Origin: a bacterium
Lineage (GTDB): Bacteria; UBA8248
Reading direction: 5' to 3'
DNA length: 64,000 nucleotides
Assembly: GCA_965261085.1 (NCBI GenBank)
Contig: OZ253442.1
Location: 800,001 to 864,000 of the forward strand
In this document: positions 1 through 8,618 of the stretch, in pieces
Layout of the letters: every line of letters begins with the position of its first letter
Numbering within the stretch: the stretch's first letter is position 1
Notes under the pieces: model-generated
Databases searched by the model: none
What the model was told of the DNA's origin: nothing
What the model saw: the letters and a program-made list of their open reading frames with translations, nothing else
Position numbers and translations under genes: made by a program

Positions 1-1856
1 AGGGCGCCGCCGCCATCCGTACTCCCCCCGGTGATGGCGCCGGTGACGCTTCCCAGCGCGGTCGCGTCGCCGAAGTTGGCCGTCAGGCGCGCCGTGGCGT
101 CGAAATAATCGAATTCAGGCGCGGAGGAAGAACTCGCTTTGCTCATGTACATCCCGCTCGCGGGTCCCGCATAGGTCGCCGAACCGGTGAGTCCTGCGAG
201 GTTGTTCACGCTGAAGGGGTCGTTGCCGCTCGCGGCGGTTCCGAATCTGAAGCCTGTATAGATCCCGTCGGCGTCCTTGAAGCCGACCAGCCAAATCCCA
301 TAGGCCAGATAGTCCGTGTCCGCGTTGTCCCGGATATCGGAGTAGACGGCCGTATAGGCATCGCGAGCGTCGGTCTCGCTACTGCCTTCCACGCCTTTCC
401 AACCCGCCGCGGGCGAGCCGGAAAACCTCTCGACGTATGCGCCTGCATCTTTCGTGCTGACGCTGAACGAGGGGGTATTGTCCGCTAATCTGCGTGTGCG
501 GGTGTAGTGCAAATCCCCGTTCGCATCGTATTCCATGGTGAAGGCTATTTTGTCGTTGGTCTGGCCACCGAAGGAGTAGGACGATTGTGTGGTGTGGCCG
601 ATTCCCTGGTAGGTCCCGAAAGTCCTTCTCGATTTCGCCGCCCGCCGTATGCGGATGTCCGCGCCTTCCGCCAGCGCGGCGTCCGCCTCGAGGGCGTCCA
701 CAAGTATGTTGCGGCCACCGGACATCGGGCTTGAAGACGGTCTATGCGCGCCGTATGCGCCTACGAAGTTCACGATACCGTCCGTAGAACCTCCGCTTAA
801 CGTCCCGGCGACCGAGCCGGGCATTCCGCCGGTTTCTCCGTTGCCGAAGAATTGGCCGCTCCAGTTGCCCGTGTAGCTGCGCGATTCGACGGAGCCGCTC
901 ACTTCGCCTATGAAGAAGCCGTTATGCGAGGAGCCGATATTTGCGGCTCCCAGGTTCAACGAGCCGGTTAGTGGTTCGTCGTCGTAGAGATTGGTGATCG
1001 AGCCGCCGATCGTTCCGAGGGCGCCCGCCCCGCCGAAGTCAGCCGTCAAAACGACGTCACCGCCAATGGTATTGACCGGAACTTCATCGGTCGTATCCGT
1101 AGCCACGCCTATCGCATTCCCTTCATAGCGCGCCGTGCCTTGCAGGGCCGTGAGGTTGTTCTGCCGGAAAGGATCGCTGCCGTCCGAAAACGCGCCGAAT
1201 GCATAATCGGCGACGCTCGACGCATCGCCGGGAACGAACAGCCAGATCCCTCCCACCAGGTAGTCGGTGTCCGGGCCGCCGCCCTGCTGTGGATCGGGAG
1301 CAGCGATGTCCGTGTATACATCGATATACAGAACACCGGCGTTGATGCGCTCGCGCAGCGCAACGCCCTTCCAGGGTGATGGGGCATCCGATATCTGGAG
1401 CGGGTTCCCTTCGTTCATGCCAAGCGACCATTCCGACCCGTTGCGCAGCGAAAAACGCGGTACGCCCGTTCCATGCTCCGCAGTGACTTCCACCTGGTCG
1501 GTTGTGGTGTTGTTGCTGTCCACATTTGAAGACTGGGTAACGCTGCCCGGATTAGGCTGGGCTTGCGCTGCCCGCGCGATCACACTCACTGCGTTGGTGG
1601 CCGTCGTCTGATCTTCGAGGGCTTGCTCTCGTGTCGGGATGGTCGCCGGTGGATCCATCGAACCGCCGCCGGTCATTCCACCGCCGCCTCCGGGCATTGG
1701 TGTCGGCATCTGGGCGGGTTGGCCGCCCATGTTGGCGCCTCCGCCTCCTCCACCCCCGCCGCAGCCCGACAGCGCGAAGGCGCAAACCAGCGCGAGCAAT
1801 ATCAACACGAACGAGAGAGATGTTTTTTGCTTGAGTTGCTTTTTGGCGTTTCTCAT
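1..1856 (-). CDS. Surface lipoprotein A with two tandem transferrin-binding-protein-B-like (handle plus beta-barrel) lobes; runs off the left edge, >618 aa
   Basis: Missing from the ORF track because it has no stop in the window. ATG at 1856 after GAGGAG. MRNAKKQLKQKTSLSFVLILLALVCAFALSGC lipobox plus poly-Gly. Internal repeat DTDYLVGGIWL..GSDPF..NNLTALQGTARYEG vs DTDYLAYGIWL..GNDPF..NNLAGLTGSATYAG. Barrel motif WSGQFFGNG..VAGT..FVGAYGA. Confidence 0.8.
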   Translation of the reverse strand, partial: MRNAKKQLKQKTSLSFVLILLALVCAFALSGCGGGGGGGGANMGGQPAQMPTPMPGGGGGMTGGGSMDPPATIPTREQALEDQTTATNAVSVIARAAQAQPNPGSVTQSSNVDSNNTTTDQVEVTAEHGTGVPRFSLRNGSEWSLGMNEGNPLQISDAPSPWKGVALRERINAGVLYIDVYTDIAAPDPQQGGGPDTDYLVGGIWLFVPGDASSVADYAFGAFSDGSDPFRQNNLTALQGTARYEGNAIGVATDTTDEVPVNTIGGDVVLTADFGGAGALGTIGGSITNLYDDEPLTGSLNLGAANIGSSHNGFFIGEVSGSVESRSYTGNWSGQFFGNGETGGMPGSVAGTLSGGSTDGIVNFVGAYGAHRPSSSPMSGGRNILVDALEADAALAEGADIRIRRAAKSRRTFGTYQGIGHTTQSSYSFGGQTNDKIAFTMEYDANGDLHYTRTRRLADNTPSFSVSTKDAGAYVERFSGSPAAGWKGVEGSSETDARDAYTAVYSDIRDNADTDYLAYGIWLVGFKDADGIYTGFRFGTAASGNDPFSVNNLAGLTGSATYAGPASGMYMSKASSSSAPEFDYFDATARLTANFGDATALGSVTGAITGGSTDGGGA

Positions 1857-2068
1857 TTTTGCTCTCCTCAAACAGTGGAAGATGGCTACTCGCCGGACCG
1901 CAGATGCAGACCGGACTATCGGTGACCAGGACCACGATTGAAGAGATGGTTTGCCGCTGTTTCGCTCTCCGGGAGATGGAGAGGGTTTTCTATTCAGCGG
2001 CTAACTGAAATCGACAATCGTGATTTTTGTGGCGGAGAAATGATCGGATAGAAAGGTGGGGATGTCAA
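1857..2068 (-). promoter_or_regulatory. Repeated promoter plus structured 5' leader, copy 1 (upstream of lipoprotein A)
   Basis: TTGACA (2068-2063), 17 nt, GATCAT. Stems ATCACGATTG/CAATCGTGGT, GCCGCTG/CAGCGGC and CTCTCC/GGAGAG. Ends at the RBS and ATG. Confidence 0.7.
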
Positions 2069-2238
2069 ACGCGAGTGGATGAGGAAAACACCAGGCGGCG
2101 GCGAGTTTAATGCTCCGTTCCCGATAGTGGCCCGCTCACGAGATGCCCCGCCGCCCCCGGCGAGGAGCCGGGAGCGGCGAGAGGGGTTGCCCGCCGTGTG
2201 ATGGGTCTGGGGAATGGGCGGCGGGCCTTTGCGTTCGG

Positions 2239-2400
2239 CTACTGTTTTTACACCCCGAAAGCGCCGATGAAGCTTTGTAGCCCATCCGCCGTAGTCGCCC
2301 CGAAGGCGCCTGCCACGGAGCCGGGATGATCGGTCGCGCTTGCGCCGTTGCCGAAGAACTTCCCGCCCCACGTGCCCGAGAAGGCGACGCTGCTACTCGT
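2239..2400 (-). pseudogene. C-terminal relic of another TbpB-like lipoprotein barrel
   Basis: Translates TSSSVAFSGTWGGKFFGNGASATDHPGSVAGAFGATTADGLQSFIGAFGV*KQ*. Aligns with YTGNWSGQFFGNGETGGMPGSVAGTLSGGSTDGIVNFVGAYGAHR of lipoprotein A. No start codon or N-terminus. Confidence 0.75.
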
Positions 2401-2474
2401 TCGCCACTGGCGGCGCTGCCGGCAGAGCCTTAATCACCGCAAAGACAATCTTCAACCTCGCGCCTCTTGATTGT

Positions 2475-3410
2475 TTATTGTCTGCGCTCTGTGTTGAATC
2501 CTCCTATCAACGCGCGACCTTCTGTGGTGCCGCCGACTAGTCCTCCCGGGTAATAACTAAACGTCCCCCCGGCTTCTTCCTGATTCGGTCCATAAAATGC
2601 ACCTGACAGCCTGTTTGAGTTCTGGTTGTAGGAGAAGCGTCCATTGTTTATTGCCATGTTGTTGTAATTGATGGGTGACAGGCTCCTGTCTTCGAACTCA
2701 GAGAACGTTGCGTCCGCTGTCATGTCTGTGAAATCGACGTTTATTTGCGCTGTTGCAGTTCCGAGAGTTCGTGGACTATTCGAGTCAAAGACTACAGCGA
2801 TTCCGGTCCATGTGGCGCTCCCTTGTGCCGGATTATTTCCGGTCACATAGCCTGTTGAATAGGCTTGTGAAAGATTACTGCTTCCAAGACCGACAATGGT
2901 TCCTGAGAACAAATATATCTCCTGGAAGCTATGACTACCCCATACTCCGATACCCCTAAAATCAAGATCTTCAAACGAGTACCCTTGGTAAGTCGTGTTG
3001 CTCATTCTTTCTTGATACCGCCCGATTGTAAGATTGGTGCCGCTTGGTGTTTCCGTGTTGTACCTGCTGATGCTTACTTCTACTGGTGGTCCCAAGTCTA
3101 TTGGAGTCGCTATTGTCAGTCCTTCACTGTTGATGATGGAGTCTGACCAAGAATAGGCATTTGTCCTATTGAATATACCGGAGAGTTTTTCGCCTGGTGT
3201 GCCTCCGGGAGTACCGCCCGTATCGTCGGAGCCGCCACCGCCGCCGGGCATCGGGTCCGGCGTCGGCATTACCATCGGCTGATTCGAGGTCGTAGAGCCT
3301 CCTCCTCCCCCGCCGCAGCCGGACAGCGCGAAGGCGCAAACCAGCGCGAAAACGAGCAGCACGAACGAGAGAGTTGTTTTTTGGTGGAACTGTTTTTGCG
3401 CGTTTCTCAT
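2475..3410 (-). CDS. Surface lipoprotein B, single TbpB-like C-terminal barrel (311 aa)
   Basis: True start at 3410 (GAGGAG RBS). Signal peptide near-identical to lipoprotein A (LVCAFALSGC-GGGGGG). GSATWTG, INVDF, LSGAFYGPNQEEAGGTF and IGGF barrel motifs. Confidence 0.8.
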   Translation of the reverse strand: MRNAQKQFHQKTTLSFVLLVFALVCAFALSGCGGGGGGSTTSNQPMVMPTPDPMPGGGGGSDDTGGTPGGTPGEKLSGIFNRTNAYSWSDSIINSEGLTIATPIDLGPPVEVSISRYNTETPSGTNLTIGRYQERMSNTTYQGYSFEDLDFRGIGVWGSHSFQEIYLFSGTIVGLGSSNLSQAYSTGYVTGNNPAQGSATWTGIAVVFDSNSPRTLGTATAQINVDFTDMTADATFSEFEDRSLSPINYNNMAINNGRFSYNQNSNRLSGAFYGPNQEEAGGTFSYYPGGLVGGTTEGRALIGGFNTERRQ

Positions 3411-3623
3411 TTTTGCTCTCCTCAAACAGTGGAAGATGGCTACTCGCCAGACCGCAGTTGCAGCCCGACTATCGGTGACCAAGACCACGATTGAAGAGAT
3501 GGTTTTCCCGCTGTTCAGTACCCCAGAGGATGGAGAACATCTTGTTTTCAACGGGTTAACTGAAATCGACTATCGCGGTTTTCGTGGCGGAGGAATGACC
3601 GGTGATAACCGCTCGAATGTCAA
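3411..3623 (-). promoter_or_regulatory. Repeated promoter plus structured leader, copy 2 (upstream of lipoprotein B)
   Basis: TTGACA (3623-3618), 17 nt, GGTCAT. Stems ACCGCGAT/ATCGTGGT and CCCGTTG/CAGCGGG. Colinear with copy 1. Confidence 0.7.
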
Positions 3624-3887
3624 ATACATGATTCATAAAGACAGACTGCAGCGGCGAGATTCTTGTCGCTTCTTGGGTGTTTGGGTGATCTAGTAGTTAA
3701 TTTTTTTTAAAAAAATAATCACTTTTTTTGAGGAAAGGGGTAGATTTCTGAGGGCATTTTCCGCAACATTGTCAAATGCACTTCGCTGTATTCGAGGTTT
3801 CCCGAAGCTCCGTTTCTTTAGAAAGGATTAACAATCACAGAAAGCCCTTGGTCGGCGATTCAGGTTGAAGATGAATGGGCGGGGCAT

Positions 3888-4106
3888 TTTCTTCTTCCGG
3901 GACAGTGAAAGAGGGCTGTTTTCCCGACCGCGAACGCAGTCGGGCTGTTTGCCACAAAAACCACGATTGAAGAGATGGGTTTCCCGCCTATTCCGGCCTC
4001 CAGGAAACTGGAGGCCGTATTCTATTTAGCGGGCAGCCCGAAACGGCCGGCTGCCGTGGCTTTTGTGGCAAACAAGATGATCGGACATGGAACCCCGCCT
4101 TGTCAA
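3888..4106 (-). ncRNA. Repeated promoter plus structured leader, copy 3 (orphan; followed only by a 19-codon ORF)
   Basis: TTGACA (4106-4101), 18 nt, GATCAT. Long closing stem TGTTTGCCACAAAAGCCACG/CGTGGTTTTTGTGGCAAACA, inner GGCCTCCAG/CTGGAGGCC, shared core CATCTCTTCAATCGTGGT. Confidence 0.55.
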
Positions 4107-4237
4107 ATGAATCAGGCGACTTGTAGATCAAGCATGACGCGAATGTATGCCGAAAATTGGCGCAAACGGCGGAAATTTTCGGCATTTCTCGATTAATGAG
4201 AAAGGCGGCGATTCGCCCGGCCACGAGACAATAGCGT

Positions 4238-4395
4238 TGTTTGCTGTAAAAACCACGATTTTAGAGATGAGTTTCCCCCTGTTGTGCTCTCCAGGGGGAT
4301 GGAGATGCGTCTTGTATTCAGCGGCTGGTTCGGTGTTGGGTCCTCGTGCTTTATTTCGCTAGAGAAATGATCGGACAGGAAATTCTAAATGTCAA
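4238..4395 (-). ncRNA. Repeated promoter plus structured leader, copy 4 (orphan, degenerate 3' part)
   Basis: TTGACA (4395-4390), 17 nt, GATCAT. GCCGCTGAATA, CTCCA/TGGAG hairpin, CATCTCTAAAATCGTGGTTTTT. Confidence 0.5.
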
Positions 4396-4607
4396 TCAAA
4401 ATCGAACGGGCGGGGCGCCATCCTTTGAAGAATGTGGGCGAGGAATTGCGTATTGATGTCTTTCTCGTCCTCGGCAAACCCCTCATCGGTCGGGATTGAC
4501 CCTCCTCATTGACACCACCCACCCCTCATGAAAGCATCGCGGGAAACGTCATCAAACCAGCGGGTGCTTTCGCCGCCTGCTCCCGCCTCTCGATAAGGAG
4601 AGCGAAG

Positions 4608-5207
4608 ATGTTTCGGCGTATCGCTCGGTGCGTGGTGGTGACGTGTCTGGCGGCGGTTCTTGCGGCGTGTGCGTTCGCCCCGCATCAGGCTCAGGCTGCC
4701 GGGCGGGACGTCGTTTTTATTAAAGCGTTTTATGCGCTCGATGAGCCGAGGTTTCACTGCGTCGACGTTCCGGGGCACCGCTCCCGCGTCAACACCGCTG
4801 CCGCCTTGGTCGTACACACCTGCAAGGAAGGCATCTGGAACCTCGATGGGCATTTCGACCCCGCCGCCGTAGCGAAGGGCCTGCTCAGGATGCCCGAATA
4901 CGGATTGTGCGTCGCCGCTGCTTCCGCCTCGGACGGCGCCAAGCTCATGCTCGGAAAATGCGACGGCACAGCCCTTCAGAACTGGCGTTTTGAGAACTAC
5001 CGCTTGAGCCTCAAGGCGCATCCCGATAAATGCCTCACCATCGGCCCGGAACCCTCCCGGCTCACGCGGGGCGGGCGCAGGCTCCCGAGCCGTCACATGG
5101 CGCGCTCGCTCGCCCTCGCCACCTGCTCGGAAGAAGCGCTAGAGAGACAGCTCTGGCGCATGGAGAAGCCCATGGATCGCACCGGCTCCATCATGCCCTT
5201 CAAGTAA
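4608..5207 (+). CDS. Secreted ricin-type beta-trefoil lectin-like protein
   Basis: AAGGAG RBS, signal peptide ending AQA, paired Cys (CVDV..TC, LCV..KC, CLT..TC), QxW motifs (LQNW, RQLW). Confidence 0.7.
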   Translation: MFRRIARCVVVTCLAAVLAACAFAPHQAQAAGRDVVFIKAFYALDEPRFHCVDVPGHRSRVNTAAALVVHTCKEGIWNLDGHFDPAAVAKGLLRMPEYGLCVAAASASDGAKLMLGKCDGTALQNWRFENYRLSLKAHPDKCLTIGPEPSRLTRGGRRLPSRHMARSLALATCSEEALERQLWRMEKPMDRTGSIMPFK

Positions 5208-5351
5208 AGACGACGCGCGGATATCACCGGTTGACGCAACCCATCATTGGGAGAGAAAAGCGAAAGAAAGCGGCGCAACCCGGAGCCCTTCTATCGATTG
5301 GGTAATCCCCGTTTGATTTTGGGCATCACGAACACGAGGAGGATCCACCCC

Positions 5352-7715
5352 ATGTCTTTCCGTAAAAACACGTCCACAAGCAAGGTGTGCGCTTTCGCGC
5401 TGGCGTCGCTGTTGGCGCTGGGGCCGGCCGGTTGCGGGGGCGGCGGCGGGGGCGGCGGCGCAACCATGGGCGCCCCGCCCGCCACAATGCCGGGCCAGCC
5501 GCAACCTGGGGGGACCGAGCGGGTAAGAGCCACCGTCCTGCCCCACCCGAGAGGCGCCGGGGACGTCGCGTCGCTCGCGTGGGAGGACGTGACGATTCCC
5601 ACGCGGGCGGGCGTTCGGCAGCGTCTTCTGCTCGCCAAAGCGGGGAATGCGGGGACCAAGTCAGTGATTCTCTTCATGGGCGGCCCGGGAACGCCGATTA
5701 CGTTTCCGCGAGAGGGAGGCATACGGCTCAGCGGCAATTTTCTCGTAAGAAGCTCCGCGCTCTTCGCCGAGGCGGGATTCGTCACGGCCATCATCGACGC
5801 TCCCTCGGACAGGAGCGAAGGCATAAACTTTTCATTCAGGCAGTCGAGTCAGCATCATGCGGACGTGCGTGCGGTGGTGGATTTTCTGGTGAGCGAGGGC
5901 GCGCGCGAGGTGTACCTGATCGGCACGAGCAACGGCACGATGTCCGTTGCATATCTGGCCTCTGTGATTACGCATCCGAGAGTTGCGGGCTATGTTCTCA
6001 CCGCGAGCGGGAGGTCGATAGTGTCTTATGCAGGTGAAATCAGAGACCCCGTCCTGATGGTGCATCACACGGACGACGGGTGCGCCGGCACGCAGTTTTC
6101 CGATGCGCAGACTACATTCAACGCGATCACGAACAGCCCGCGCAAGGAGTTCGTCTCCGTAAGCGGAGGGGATCCGCAGATAAGCCCCAGTCCTTGTCAG
6201 GCGCAGACCGCGCATGGGTTTATAGGCAAAGAGCGTGAAACGGTGGCGGCGATCGCGGAGTGGGTAAATACAGGGACGGTCACGGACACGAACCTGCTCA
6301 CGGACGAGGACGCGCCCTCGCCGCACAAGGCGTGGCTCGCGCGCTTCGGGCGCACGGCGGCGGAACACGTCACCGAAGCCATCGGCGATCGGCAGCGCGG
6401 AGCGCCAAGCTCGCGCCTGACCCTGGGCGGTCAGGATATCGACTTAGGTGTCTCTCCCCTCCCCCTGGCGGATGCAGATTCCGGCGCGCGCTTTGCGGAG
6501 GGTCTGCTCGATGCGCGCAGCGGAGACGCTTTCGCGGGGCGCGAGATGTCGATGAGCGAGTTGCTGCTGGCGAGTTCTTTCCACCTGGCTTCTGCGGAGG
6601 GAAAGGATGTAGGCGGCGGCTGGTCGCTCTGGGGAGGTGCTGCGCGTTCGAACTTCGATGCGAAAGAGGGCGCGCTCGCACTCGACGGCGACGTCTCCAC
6701 GGCGACACTGGGCTTCGACTTCGAACGGGAGCGGTGGCTGGCCGGCGTGGCGCTCTCGCGCAGCGCGGGAGAAGGCACGTTCAAGATGGGCGGAACCTGC
6801 GCTTCGGGGTGCAGCGGCGATCTCGAGAGCACACTCACCGGCGTGTATCCCTATGCGCGCTATCGCTTCAGCGAGCGTCTTTCGGCCTGGGGAATTCTCG
6901 GCCACGGGCGCGGGGAGTTGACGCTCACCACGCAGGGAAGAAGCCCCGTCGAGACCGACATCGAGATGAACATGGCGGCGTTCGGGGGGCGCGGCGTCCT
7001 GCTGCCCGCTGTGAGCAAGGGTGATTTCGAACTAGCGCTTCGCTCGGATGCGCTGCTGACGTGGACGAGTTCCGAAGAGACCCGAGATCTCGCGGAGACG
7101 GAACCGGAGACGAGCCGCCTGCGGCTCGCGCTCGAGGTCTCCCGTGCGTTCGCGCTTGATTCGGGCGCGAGCCTCACTCCTTCTCTCGAAGTGGGTCTGC
7201 GCTACGACGGGGGCGACGCGGAGACGGGAAGCGGCGTCGAGCTCGGCGGCGGGCTTCGCTACACGGGTTCGGGCCTCACGATACAGGTGAATGCCCGCGG
7301 ACTGCTGGCGCATGCGGATAGCGAATATGAAGAATGGGGCGTGAGCGGCTCGGTGCGCCTCGACCCGGGCGAGAGAGGACGCGGTTTGTCCATGCGCTTG
7401 GGTTCGTCCTGGGGCGCTTCGGCGGGCGGTGCGGAGCAAATTTGGAACGGGCGCCGCGCGGCGGGTCTGAATGGAAACGGAGAATTCGACCCGGGTTCGC
7501 ACCTCGATGCGGAGGTGGGCTATGGTCTGGGCGGCATGGGCGGCCTCCTCACCCCCTACGGCGGCATGTCGGTCTCAGAGAGTGTGCAGACCTACCGCGT
7601 GGGTAGTCGCTTCAGGCTCGATGAGCGTTTCAGCATGGGCCTGGAAGGTGAGCGCCGCGAGGGCGGCGATGACGTCGAACACGGGCTCGCGCTGCGCGGC
7701 TCCCTCCGCTGGTAG
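5352..7715 (+). CDS. Lipoprotein-anchored autotransporter-like protein with alpha/beta-hydrolase passenger and C-terminal outer-membrane beta-barrel
   Basis: GAGGAGG RBS, lipobox-like GPAGC plus poly-Gly, GTSNG elbow, AHGF His. AWLARFGRT linker, YPYARY, LTPSLEVGLRYDGGDAETG and terminal LRW. Confidence 0.8.
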   Translation: MSFRKNTSTSKVCAFALASLLALGPAGCGGGGGGGGATMGAPPATMPGQPQPGGTERVRATVLPHPRGAGDVASLAWEDVTIPTRAGVRQRLLLAKAGNAGTKSVILFMGGPGTPITFPREGGIRLSGNFLVRSSALFAEAGFVTAIIDAPSDRSEGINFSFRQSSQHHADVRAVVDFLVSEGAREVYLIGTSNGTMSVAYLASVITHPRVAGYVLTASGRSIVSYAGEIRDPVLMVHHTDDGCAGTQFSDAQTTFNAITNSPRKEFVSVSGGDPQISPSPCQAQTAHGFIGKERETVAAIAEWVNTGTVTDTNLLTDEDAPSPHKAWLARFGRTAAEHVTEAIGDRQRGAPSSRLTLGGQDIDLGVSPLPLADADSGARFAEGLLDARSGDAFAGREMSMSELLLASSFHLASAEGKDVGGGWSLWGGAARSNFDAKEGALALDGDVSTATLGFDFERERWLAGVALSRSAGEGTFKMGGTCASGCSGDLESTLTGVYPYARYRFSERLSAWGILGHGRGELTLTTQGRSPVETDIEMNMAAFGGRGVLLPAVSKGDFELALRSDALLTWTSSEETRDLAETEPETSRLRLALEVSRAFALDSGASLTPSLEVGLRYDGGDAETGSGVELGGGLRYTGSGLTIQVNARGLLAHADSEYEEWGVSGSVRLDPGERGRGLSMRLGSSWGASAGGAEQIWNGRRAAGLNGNGEFDPGSHLDAEVGYGLGGMGGLLTPYGGMSVSESVQTYRVGSRFRLDERFSMGLEGERREGGDDVEHGLALRGSLRW

Positions 7716-7743: not shown

Positions 7744-8618
7744 ATGATGCGATGGATCGTGACGGCGATGCTCGCCTGTGTCTTGTTGGGAGGCGATGCG
7801 CTTTAGCAAGGAGACACATTCCAAATCATGGAAATTAAACGTATCAAAGTTGACATCAAACCCCACCCCAATGGAGTCGGGGACGTCGCGTCGAGCACCT
7901 GGAAGGACGTGTACCTCCCAACGCGGGCGGGCGTGAAACAGCCCCTTCTGCTCGCCAAAGCTGCGAATGCGGGGAGCAAGGCCGTCATCCTCTTCATGGG
8001 TGGAATTGGGACGCCAATCACGAAGAAAGCAGGGGAGAAATTCAGGCTCAACGCCAATTTTCTGGTAAGAAGCTCAGCGCTTTTCGCCGAGGCGGGATTC
8101 ATGACGGCCATCGTGGATGCGCCCTCGGACAAAGGCTACGGTATGGAGAATCGCTTCAGGAAATCAGAAGCGCATCAGAAAGACATTGCCAAGGTGGTGG
8201 ATTTTCTGGTGAGCGAGGGCGCGTGCGAGGTGTTCCTGATCGGCACGAGCCGGGGCACGTTGTCCGTCGCGTATCTGGCGTCCGTGATGACGCACGCGAA
8301 CGTCGAGGGCTATGTCCTCACCGCGAGTCTGGAGGATGTCGTGTTCTATACGGAGAAAATCAACGCCCCGTCCTGATGGCGCATCACGCGGACGATGAGT
8401 GCCGCGTAACGACCCTCACCGGCGCACGGGCCGCATATCGTACGTTGGCGAAAAGTCCACGCAAGGCTTTCATCACCGTGAGCGGAGGAGACCCACCGAG
8501 GAGCCGTGCTTGTGGGCCGCTGAGCGCCCATGGATTTTTGGGAGTTGAACGAGAGACGGTGGTGGCGGTCGTAGACTGGATGAACGGCAAGACGCCGCCC
8601 GAACACGTGGGCCCGTAA
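7744..8618 (+). pseudogene. Secreted alpha/beta hydrolase, paralog of the autotransporter passenger; disrupted
   Basis: Signal peptide from 7744 is broken by an in-frame TAG (7804-7806). One C is missing near 8366-8369 (INAPS* should read INAPVLMAHH, cf. IRDPVLMVHH in the paralog). GTSRG elbow. Confidence 0.75.

Follow-up and report, generated by a model that had tools for sequence, protein, structure and literature searches.

Tandem promoter-linked copies of an uncatalogued leader RNA with two competing pairings at a bacterial surface-lipoprotein locus

Four promoter-linked copies of a structured RNA that is uncatalogued in Rfam 15 lie in tandem at the head of a surface-lipoprotein locus, on the minus strand of a 64,000-nucleotide (nt) stretch of DNA from a UBA8248 bacterium (contig OZ253442.1 of assembly GCA_965261085.1, positions 800,001 to 864,000; hereafter referred to as the window). 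Each copy comprises a promoter-like site followed by a leader RNA of approximately 150 nt, which belongs to a family linked to genes for exported proteins. In the two copies that directly precede lipoprotein genes, the conserved core of the RNA can pair either with the 5′ strand of the leader or with the ribosome-binding site (RBS) of the gene, and we consider it probable (roughly 0.7) that the units represent two-fold leaders that gate lipoprotein translation. The RNA is compact, and both of its alternative folds are supported by sequence comparison. An original prediction, made from the letters of the window, had described the four copies as a structured cis-regulatory RNA or small RNA (sRNA) family; beyond this, the present analysis reveals a genome-wide, multi-genome family tied to exported proteins, two mutually exclusive folds and a core that is an anti-Shine–Dalgarno (anti-SD) sequence.

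The units, designated D, C, B and A, follow one another in this order on the minus strand from position 4395 to position 1857; genes sit behind units B and A, and units C and D have no gene. The pattern TTGACA-N17/18-GRTCAT has four matches in the window, all at units A–D, where 0.02 were expected and none of 100 shuffles reached four, which bears out the originally proposed places of the units and their promoter-like heads. A generic promoter scan recovered three of the four units; unit B carries GGTCAT. From such sigma-70-type promoters, each unit would express one copy of the structured leader. The 18-base core proposed as common to all copies is exact in every unit except D, where two positions differ, and at up to two mismatches it occurs at five places in the 4.27-Mb genome, four of them being units A–D. 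The end of unit D had been placed at 4238; the unit extends to about 4200. In Fold I, the RNA consists of a long closing helix (P1), a hairpin (P2), a hairpin with an apical part (P3/P3a) and a 3′ hairpin (P4), and an alternative helix defines Fold II. The elements of the locus are as follows (ORF, open reading frame; R1, a covariance model built from 25 copies).

4367–4395, minus strand: unit D promoter-like site (TTGACA, 17 nt, GATCAT; pattern scan)
4212–4362, minus strand: unit D RNA (R1, 99.8 bits; orthologues in seven genomes); core 4252–4269, P3 4319–4324/4276–4281, apical hairpin 4300–4305/4288–4293; P1, P2, P4 and the alternative helix all degenerate
4207–4218, minus strand: small GGGCGAATCGCC hairpin and then a U-rich run, 3′ of unit D
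4077–4106, minus strand: unit C promoter-like site (TTGACA, 18 nt, GATCAT; pattern scan)
3919–4072, minus strand: unit C RNA, the canonical member (R1, 169 bits; fold z-score −7.96; all helices paired); P1 4055–4069/3951–3965, P2 4049–4054/4033–4038, P3 4028–4032/3984–3988, P3a 4008–4017/3994–4003, core 3960–3977, P4 3936–3944/3923–3931, alternative helix 4034–4040/3941–3947
3828–3887, minus strand: degenerate RBS region and 19-codon ORF, 3′ of unit C (likeness to the RBS region of units A and B judged by eye)
3595–3623, minus strand: unit B promoter-like site (TTGACA, 17 nt, GGTCAT; pattern scan)
3411–3588, minus strand: unit B leader; P1 5′ strand 3572–3579, P3 3549–3555/3507–3513, apical hairpin 3531–3535/3521–3525, P4 3447–3466, RBS region 3416–3432
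3484–3501, minus strand: unit B core, the anti-SD plus the P1 3′ strand
2475–3410, minus strand: lipoprotein gene behind unit B (311 amino acids (aa), lipobox, Gly run, TbpB_B_D domain)
2251–2400, minus strand: remnant of a TbpB-like lipoprotein gene covering roughly its final 50 codons, preceded by stop codons
2040–2068, minus strand: unit A promoter-like site (TTGACA, 17 nt, GATCAT; pattern scan)
1857–2033, minus strand: unit A leader; P1 5′ strand 2015–2024, P3 1995–2001/1953–1959, apical hairpin 1978–1983/1965–1970, core 1931–1948, P4 1893–1914, RBS region 1862–1878
3–1856, minus strand: lipoprotein gene behind unit A (more than 618 aa, running off the window)

The pairings described in the original prediction are present: the 5′ strand pairs with the core over 10 of 10 positions in unit A, 8 of 8 in unit B and 15 of 15 in unit C, the second helix (here P3) occurs as GCCGCTG/CAGCGGC and CCCGTTG/CAGCGGG, and the apical hairpin and the further hairpin before the RBS are both found. 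As four sequences cannot establish the covariation that had been claimed for them, we sought relatives, and with these included the covariation is clear. When 41 related genomes were searched by blastn, seven from the same genus proved to contain clear copies, likewise arranged in tandem, and a hidden Markov model of the four copies detected 35 further copies in the fetched loci of relatives, the public records of the close relatives being labelled as Nitrospinota metagenome-assembled genomes (MAGs). The subtypes are orthologous among these arrays, with a D unit first, a C unit next, then a variable unit, in some cases without a promoter, and an A-type unit before the lipoprotein gene; the order D, C, ..., A is kept in seven of eight arrays, and one array has no D unit. 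R1 matched 20 of the 23 genomes of the genus and located six more copies in the source genome, at unlinked loci. In every class of the family, the promoter lies just 5′ of the P1 5′ strand.

RNAalifold returned no pairs from a gappy MAFFT alignment of 35 copies, and the structure was instead derived from per-subtype alignments and set by hand. The subtype C consensus is clean, consisting of a 15-base-pair (bp) P1, P2, P3 with an asymmetric internal loop, the apical hairpin P3a and P4, with a single-stranded CCAUCUCUUC running into the P1 3′ strand; the conserved internal loop of P3/P3a places UGAAUACAAGA opposite GGAAUAG. When 25 copies were aligned by MAFFT without regard to structure, 79.7% of cells paired, as compared with 35–48% when the 3′ partners were slid, and 53 cells carried double changes, as compared with 31 in shuffles (reached by 0 of 500). 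A larger alignment of 107 model-aligned rows drew on 60 of about 125 listed R1 matches (the best-scoring ones outside the arrays) together with the six own copies. Here, 88.1% of 4,313 cells pair (37–49% when slid), all 45 pairs changed on both sides, and 700 cells carry double changes versus 209 in shuffles, none of 500 shuffles reaching any of the measures. These rows include two antisense and two partial ones, without which 103 copies in 55 clusters at 80% identity remain. When each cluster is represented by a single copy, pairing amounts to 88.7% in P1, which has 5.5 pair types per position, and to 95.8%, 88.4%, 79.6% and 74.0% in P3, P3a, P4 and P2, respectively. The P1 sequences of different loci are unrelated and nevertheless pair, as exemplified by GCCACAAAAGCCACG, GGCAUACAAUCCAUG and CGCCAAACGAUUCAAAC. 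The covariation over the 107 copies thus supports the proposal of a structured cis-regulatory RNA or sRNA family.

The invariant letters of the family are CGGGYYG (the P2 3′ strand), CCCGCUGAAUACAAGAC, GGAAUAGGCGGGAACCCAC and AACCRGCCCGG. Besides being able to pair with the P2 5′ strand, CGGGYYG pairs in Fold II with CRRCCCG, which lies just 3′ of P1 and is the P4 5′ strand. This alternative helix, although it is outside the model, is 80–89% paired per position, with one pair occurring as UA 44, CG 26 and UG 9 times. Since it is built from strands of P2 and P4, it excludes both of them, and it probably also excludes the full P1 on steric grounds, as its 3′ strand follows P1 by 3–4 nt and its 5′ strand abuts P3 across the 15-bp helix. 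By this comparison, the RNA has two mutually exclusive predicted folds, both of which covary. A small CCCAC/GUGG hairpin may also form in Fold II (about 79% paired; CG 73, UA 5), as suggested almost entirely by conservation. In unit C, every helix is perfect, including the alternative helix. The single-sequence folds of units A and C are significantly stable (z-scores of −4.11 and −7.96), and unit D is the weakest copy (z-score of +0.11, with 101 of 200 shuffles equally stable), retaining 10 of 15 pairs in P1, 1 of 6 in P2 and 4 of 9 in P4. G·U cells outnumber A·C cells by 593 to 195 in the family alignment, and sense matches to R1 score 134–169 bits, far above the two antisense matches at 26–27 bits, indicating that the RNA has the sequence of the minus strand.

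Units A and B carry the core CAUCUCUUCAAUCGUGG in the segment bounded by P3 and the end of P1, where it has two possible partners: the 5′ strand, with which it forms 10 pairs in A and 8 in B, and CCACUGUUUGAGGAGAG, which holds the Shine–Dalgarno (SD) sequence. The unconstrained optimum of unit A, in which the RBS is hidden, has a predicted energy of −60.2 kcal/mol, as compared with −58.2 kcal/mol for the P1-forced fold, and the corresponding values for unit B are −57.5 and −53.9 kcal/mol. The core–RBS duplex alone amounts to −17.2 kcal/mol in both units and reaches −24.4 kcal/mol, with 17 contiguous pairs, in an orthologue. Because pairing of the core with the 5′ strand leaves the RBS free and pairing with the RBS hides it, lipoprotein translation is probably gated by the leader, and in these two units control of ribosome access is the most likely function that we can predict. 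In the proposed mechanism, pairing of the core within P1 would expose the RBS, pairing with CCACUGUUUGAGGAGAG would conceal it, and the fold would be flipped by a small ligand, a protein or another RNA. Units C and D may serve as additional leader modules on transcripts that read through, or as RNAs in their own right. The full core of the family and the anti-SD arrangement occur together in one copy from another genome (L198), which thereby links the lipoprotein subfamily to the rest of the family.

Several points weigh against this explanation. Even when P1 is forced in units A and B, the RBS remains partly covered by a small local hairpin, so that the 'on' state is not clean. Outside the lipoprotein subfamily, complementarity to the own RBS averages −14.4 kcal/mol, as compared with −12.2 kcal/mol for other RBSs, with widely spread ranks, and a family-wide test of the specificity of the RNA 3′ half for its own RBS gave a weak signal. 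The fold of unit B is not significantly stable (z-score of −1.57; 10 of 200 shuffles), and units A, B and D are without the alternative helix (1–4 of 7 pairs) and P2 (1–4 of 6 pairs), so the general two-fold scheme fits unit C best. In the 25-copy alignment, 16 of 44 pairs show a double change, a number reached by 110 of 500 shuffles, and the shuffle statistics of the 107-copy alignment overstate significance, because its rows were aligned to the model itself and come from related copies. P4 usually has no U run after it, so there is no evident terminator mechanism, and the starts of transcription, like the RNA as such, are predicted from sequence.

The distribution of the family was mapped with a second model, R2, which matched 24 of the phylum's 51 genomes, comprising 21 of the 23 from the genus and 3 of the remaining 28, and 12 places in the source genome. 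A degenerate pattern of the conserved loop, searched over all species genomes, yielded 57 loci, and R2 was applied to the 25 whose titles lie outside the genus; five of these matched (56–83 bits), all in three Acidobacteriota MAG records. In metagenome contigs, the loop pattern identified 87 stretches, and R2 matched 10 places in 9 of the 80 listed loci. A 16-base core pattern run over genome contigs gave only chance matches in unrelated taxa, and a 27-base pattern gave seven loci, all in relatives. The commonest and best-conserved class of the family is represented by G000:C1:765578-765800 (outside the window) and its orthologues (L194–L215), which occur in most genomes of the genus; it precedes no protein gene, and an RBS is followed by a conserved six-codon ORF, MG(H/R/Q/D)(A/L)(A/S)S-stop. 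In this class, the stretch from RBS to AUG, GGAUUGUAUG, has the sequence of the P1 3′ strand over again and so could be hidden by the P1 5′ strand. Another copy, at G000:C1:4008240-4008441 (outside the window), is followed by a 16-codon Cys/His-rich ORF, MGFCHHCSHLKTKSAD.

The original prediction had called for the source genome and its relatives to be searched and the downstream genes tabulated, and the result links the family to exported proteins. The first downstream ORF was sought for 81 copies and called for 75. Among the 38 that start within 70 nt downstream and have an SD sequence, 33 are signal-peptide-like and 16 have a lipobox, as compared with a background of 422 of 3,436 source-genome ORFs (12%) by the same crude signal-peptide rule. 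Pfam analysis of 53 of the 75 ORFs (the other 22 being short, SD-less or in the spacer after the commonest class) identified TbpB_B_D (five), FHBP_C, Sel1 and DUF4875 (two each) and single matches to CsgG, GH113, GT25, TM2 and a HAMP-cyclase; most ORFs had no match. Proteins with a signal peptide or lipobox are also encoded behind copies in other genera and in Acidobacteriota.

The description of the locus as one of surface lipoproteins is borne out, the genes behind units A and B encoding lipoproteins of the TbpB_B_D/Slam type. The product of the unit B gene scores 29.5 bits against TbpB_B_D (cut-off of 26) and matches the Slam-dependent lipoprotein model weakly, under the cut-off of that model, and the N terminus of the unit A gene product is paralogous to that of the unit B product. 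The leader forms a cassette with an MRNAKKQ... signal peptide, a lipobox and a Gly run (1857–1760 and 3410–3310 on the minus strand; L021–L029), and this cassette is joined to differing mature parts, namely TbpB-like domains of 190–660 aa or 801-aa hydrolase/β-barrel proteins. The remnant at 2251–2400 (minus strand), which has no start, lies between gene B and unit A and ends in ...GTWGGKFFGNGASATDHPGSVAGAFGATTADGLQSFIGAFGV*, points to recombination or deletion at this locus.

Comparison of the gene-less units with their orthologues suggests that they are probably kept by selection. Among unit C orthologues (eight genomes), identity is 84% within the RNA, 77% within the promoter and 65% across the flanks, and the corresponding figures for unit D orthologues (seven genomes) are 75%, 82% and 64–73%. 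Unit C probably lost its gene, given the degenerate RBS region, similar to those of units A and B, and the 19-codon ORF behind it. The small GGGCGAATCGCC hairpin and U-rich run that follow unit D are present in the A-type units of other genomes as well. The cores of units C and D have predicted duplex energies of −17.5 and −13.9 kcal/mol with the RBS regions of units A and B, as compared with shuffled means of about −10 and −9 kcal/mol. A genome scan for trans targets of the core returned 88 seed sites; three of the best 25 were the antisense strand of the units themselves, and no other convincing target emerged, the five best sites inspected lying inside coding regions or having no convincing gene start. 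A short element, (G)GACCCGCCC(R)UUCAUCUUC, occurs at 3865–3887 (minus strand) and after C/E-type units in L022, L023, L024, L026, L027 and L029. Its reading frame is not kept, so that it does not encode a peptide; the P3 3′ strand GGCGGG is complementary to this element. The stretch between units C and B (3685–3780, minus strand) contains an extra TTGACA (3775–3770) without an RNA unit and an AT-rich near-palindrome at about 3730–3685, both absent from those arrays of other genomes that were read.

Of the other explanations, a true riboswitch is a more specific form of the one proposed here: the conserved core (the P3 internal loop, GGGAACCCAC and CGGGYYG/CRRCCCG) would bind a small molecule, such as a second messenger or an envelope signal, and binding would select one fold. 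The invariant unpaired nucleotides inside covarying helices, the many copies per genome before functionally linked genes for exported or surface proteins and the two exclusive folds all speak for it. However, the gene set suggests no ligand, no transporter or biosynthesis genes were found among the ORFs scanned, and the conserved core is no longer complete in units A, B and D; we therefore entertain a riboswitch only tentatively. We are still more doubtful of an antisense RNA of the phage C4 or sRNA-Xcc1 kind, which would be cut from the leader or, in units C and D, made alone, and whose loop would pair with flanking targets in trans or in cis. Such an RNA would account for a core complementary to both an upstream site (the P1 5′ strand) and a downstream RBS site, for the same or nearly the same core being kept in units C and D, with the duplex energies given above, and for the few copies with sub-threshold sRNA-Xcc1 matches, in which the alternative helix corresponds to the closing stem. 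Yet C4 and IsrK matches were absent from the searched stretches, the source genome contains no sRNA-Xcc1 match at E values up to 10, the further target sites inspected in the genome scan lie inside coding regions or have no convincing gene start, and neither signs of processing sites (RNase P-type signals not being examined) nor any likeness to phage or plasmid records were found.

It is very improbable that the units are mere duplication relics, that is, a cassette of promoter, 5′ untranslated region and signal peptide recopied by recombination in a variable surface locus, the RNA having no function. The locus does bear traces of such a history, in that units A and B precede paralogous genes with near-identical N termini, a gene remnant lies at 2251–2400, a degenerate RBS and 19-codon ORF follow unit C, unit D is degenerate, and the same cassette is attached to different mature domains in other genomes. 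Nonetheless, wholly different P1 sequences still pair at unlinked loci, the family occurs in another phylum, and the gene-less C units are better conserved than their flanks, so this reading is largely refuted for the family. Least credible is that the signal belongs to a DNA element or to the opposite strand, for instance as terminators or small ORFs on the plus strand. In three units, the core translates in reverse complement as TTIEEM, ORFs on the plus strand run across the units, and a plus-strand scan flags the apical hairpins and T-rich runs as terminator-like, but the promoters face the minus direction. The small ORFs are excluded because one-base indels between copies break the frame, and the terminators because of the G·U excess over A·C and the strand difference in model scores described above.

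Divergent neighbours of the locus on the plus strand (4608–5207, 5247–7715 and 7828–8376) encode a ricin-type lectin, an 822-aa lipoprotein with a weak α/β-hydrolase match and a weak C-terminal β-barrel match, and then a truncated paralogue; the orthologue of the 822-aa gene has its own A-type leader in three other genomes, and the gene has none here. Unrelated genes of metabolism and a transposase follow the lipoprotein genes further downstream. About 10 kb past the lipoprotein locus lies a DDE transposase gene (DUF772/DDE_Tnp_1; L150 3710–5152, corresponding to G000:C1:788710-790152). A complete ribosomal RNA (rRNA) operon (16S, two transfer RNAs (tRNAs), 23S and 5S) is located at 55975–61489 on the plus strand.

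Strong covariation combined with many copies per genome is the usual signature of riboswitch-like leaders, and, to our knowledge, nearly all riboswitch-like classes control metabolism or transport. The present family stands almost only before genes for exported or surface proteins, including transferrin-binding-protein-like lipoproteins, in uncultured bacteria beyond the reach of genetics; if a signal is sensed, the family would define a cell-surface regulon. A bolder and, in our estimate, unlikely extension is that the family represents a new ligand- or factor-sensing class of secretome leaders, making the translation of dozens of exported and surface proteins respond to one signal in at least two phyla, with units C and D silencing sibling lipoprotein mRNAs in trans by means of the anti-SD loop. 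If this were true, one RNA fold would serve as both a cis switch and a trans antisense regulator.

Among known RNAs, no riboswitch matches the units, in agreement with the original prediction: Rfam 15 at the gathering score returned only the rRNA operon and two tRNAs in the whole window, and a permissive scan of 1700–4600 (E values up to 10) gave five chance-level matches (best E value of 0.23) to unrelated eukaryotic or archaeal families. A literature search that did not extend to supplements found no prior description of the family. The C4 antisense RNA of phages P1 and P7 (immI operon) and IsrK are folded RNAs that form part of a leader and are flanked on both sides by complementary sites, the downstream one overlapping an RBS. 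Units A and B and their orthologues likewise have sites complementary to the RNA upstream and, at the RBS, downstream, an arrangement that is not general in the other classes. Unlike C4 and IsrK, the family is not in a prophage context; unit C had no blastn match in phage and plasmid collections, and no C4 or IsrK Rfam match was obtained at E values up to 10 in the four-unit region or up to 1 in 17 loci with other copies.

The nearest Rfam family is sRNA-Xcc1 (RF02221), whose cut-off of 53 bits is not reached. The model scored 29.5 bits on 1 of 14 loci and 30.0 and 27.9 bits on two of the three acidobacterial loci; at E values up to 1 in the 23 genomes of the genus, it gave five matches, two of them over family copies and the other three unchecked against family copies. 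It had no match in the source genome at E values up to 10, and none in the four units. An excerpt of its description presents sRNA-Xcc1 as an 88-nt RNA of Xanthomonas campestris whose mechanism is not known (PMC2996969), and an excerpt of a later preprint places it upstream of symE in integron cassettes (bioRxiv 10.1101/2025.06.18.660453). In the few matching copies, the Xcc1 closing stem aligns to the alternative helix, its first hairpin, with the AAUACAA/GGGGAAUA internal loop, to P3, and its second hairpin to the CCCAC...GUGG stretch, and both RNAs lie upstream of a gene. By contrast, the family scores only 21–30 bits, is about 150 nt long with an extra P1 of 15–20 bp, P2 and P4, and is chromosomal, before exported-protein genes. 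The order of the Xcc1 elements and the loop letters (AAUACAA/GAAUA) fit Fold II; the second hairpin barely covaries, and the U-rich tail is not conserved. By the Rfam test, the family is not a member of sRNA-Xcc1, and its predicted second fold resembles the Xcc1 layout.

The Bartonella Brt1–9 RNAs, as outlined in an excerpt of their description (PMC5387305), are multi-copy structured RNAs of about 200 nt confined to one genus, with their own promoters and clustered copies, and are proposed to act both in cis, in a riboswitch-like manner, and in trans. The family shares with them, by description alone, the multiple structured copies, the own promoter, the position directly before a gene and the clustering, whereas the Brt RNAs precede genes for helix-turn-helix regulators rather than exported proteins (PMC5387305, in the same excerpt). 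Translational and tandem riboswitches, as portrayed in part of a published account (PMC9481103), offer a further parallel in their P1-closed junction, conserved unpaired nucleotides, RBS-hiding pairing and modules in series, whereas every module here has a promoter to itself and two are gene-less. As in riboswitches, the structure of the present RNA is conserved and supported by covariation, and its pairings are mutually exclusive, with P2 and P4 opposed to the alternative helix and, in units A and B, P1 opposed to the core–RBS duplex.

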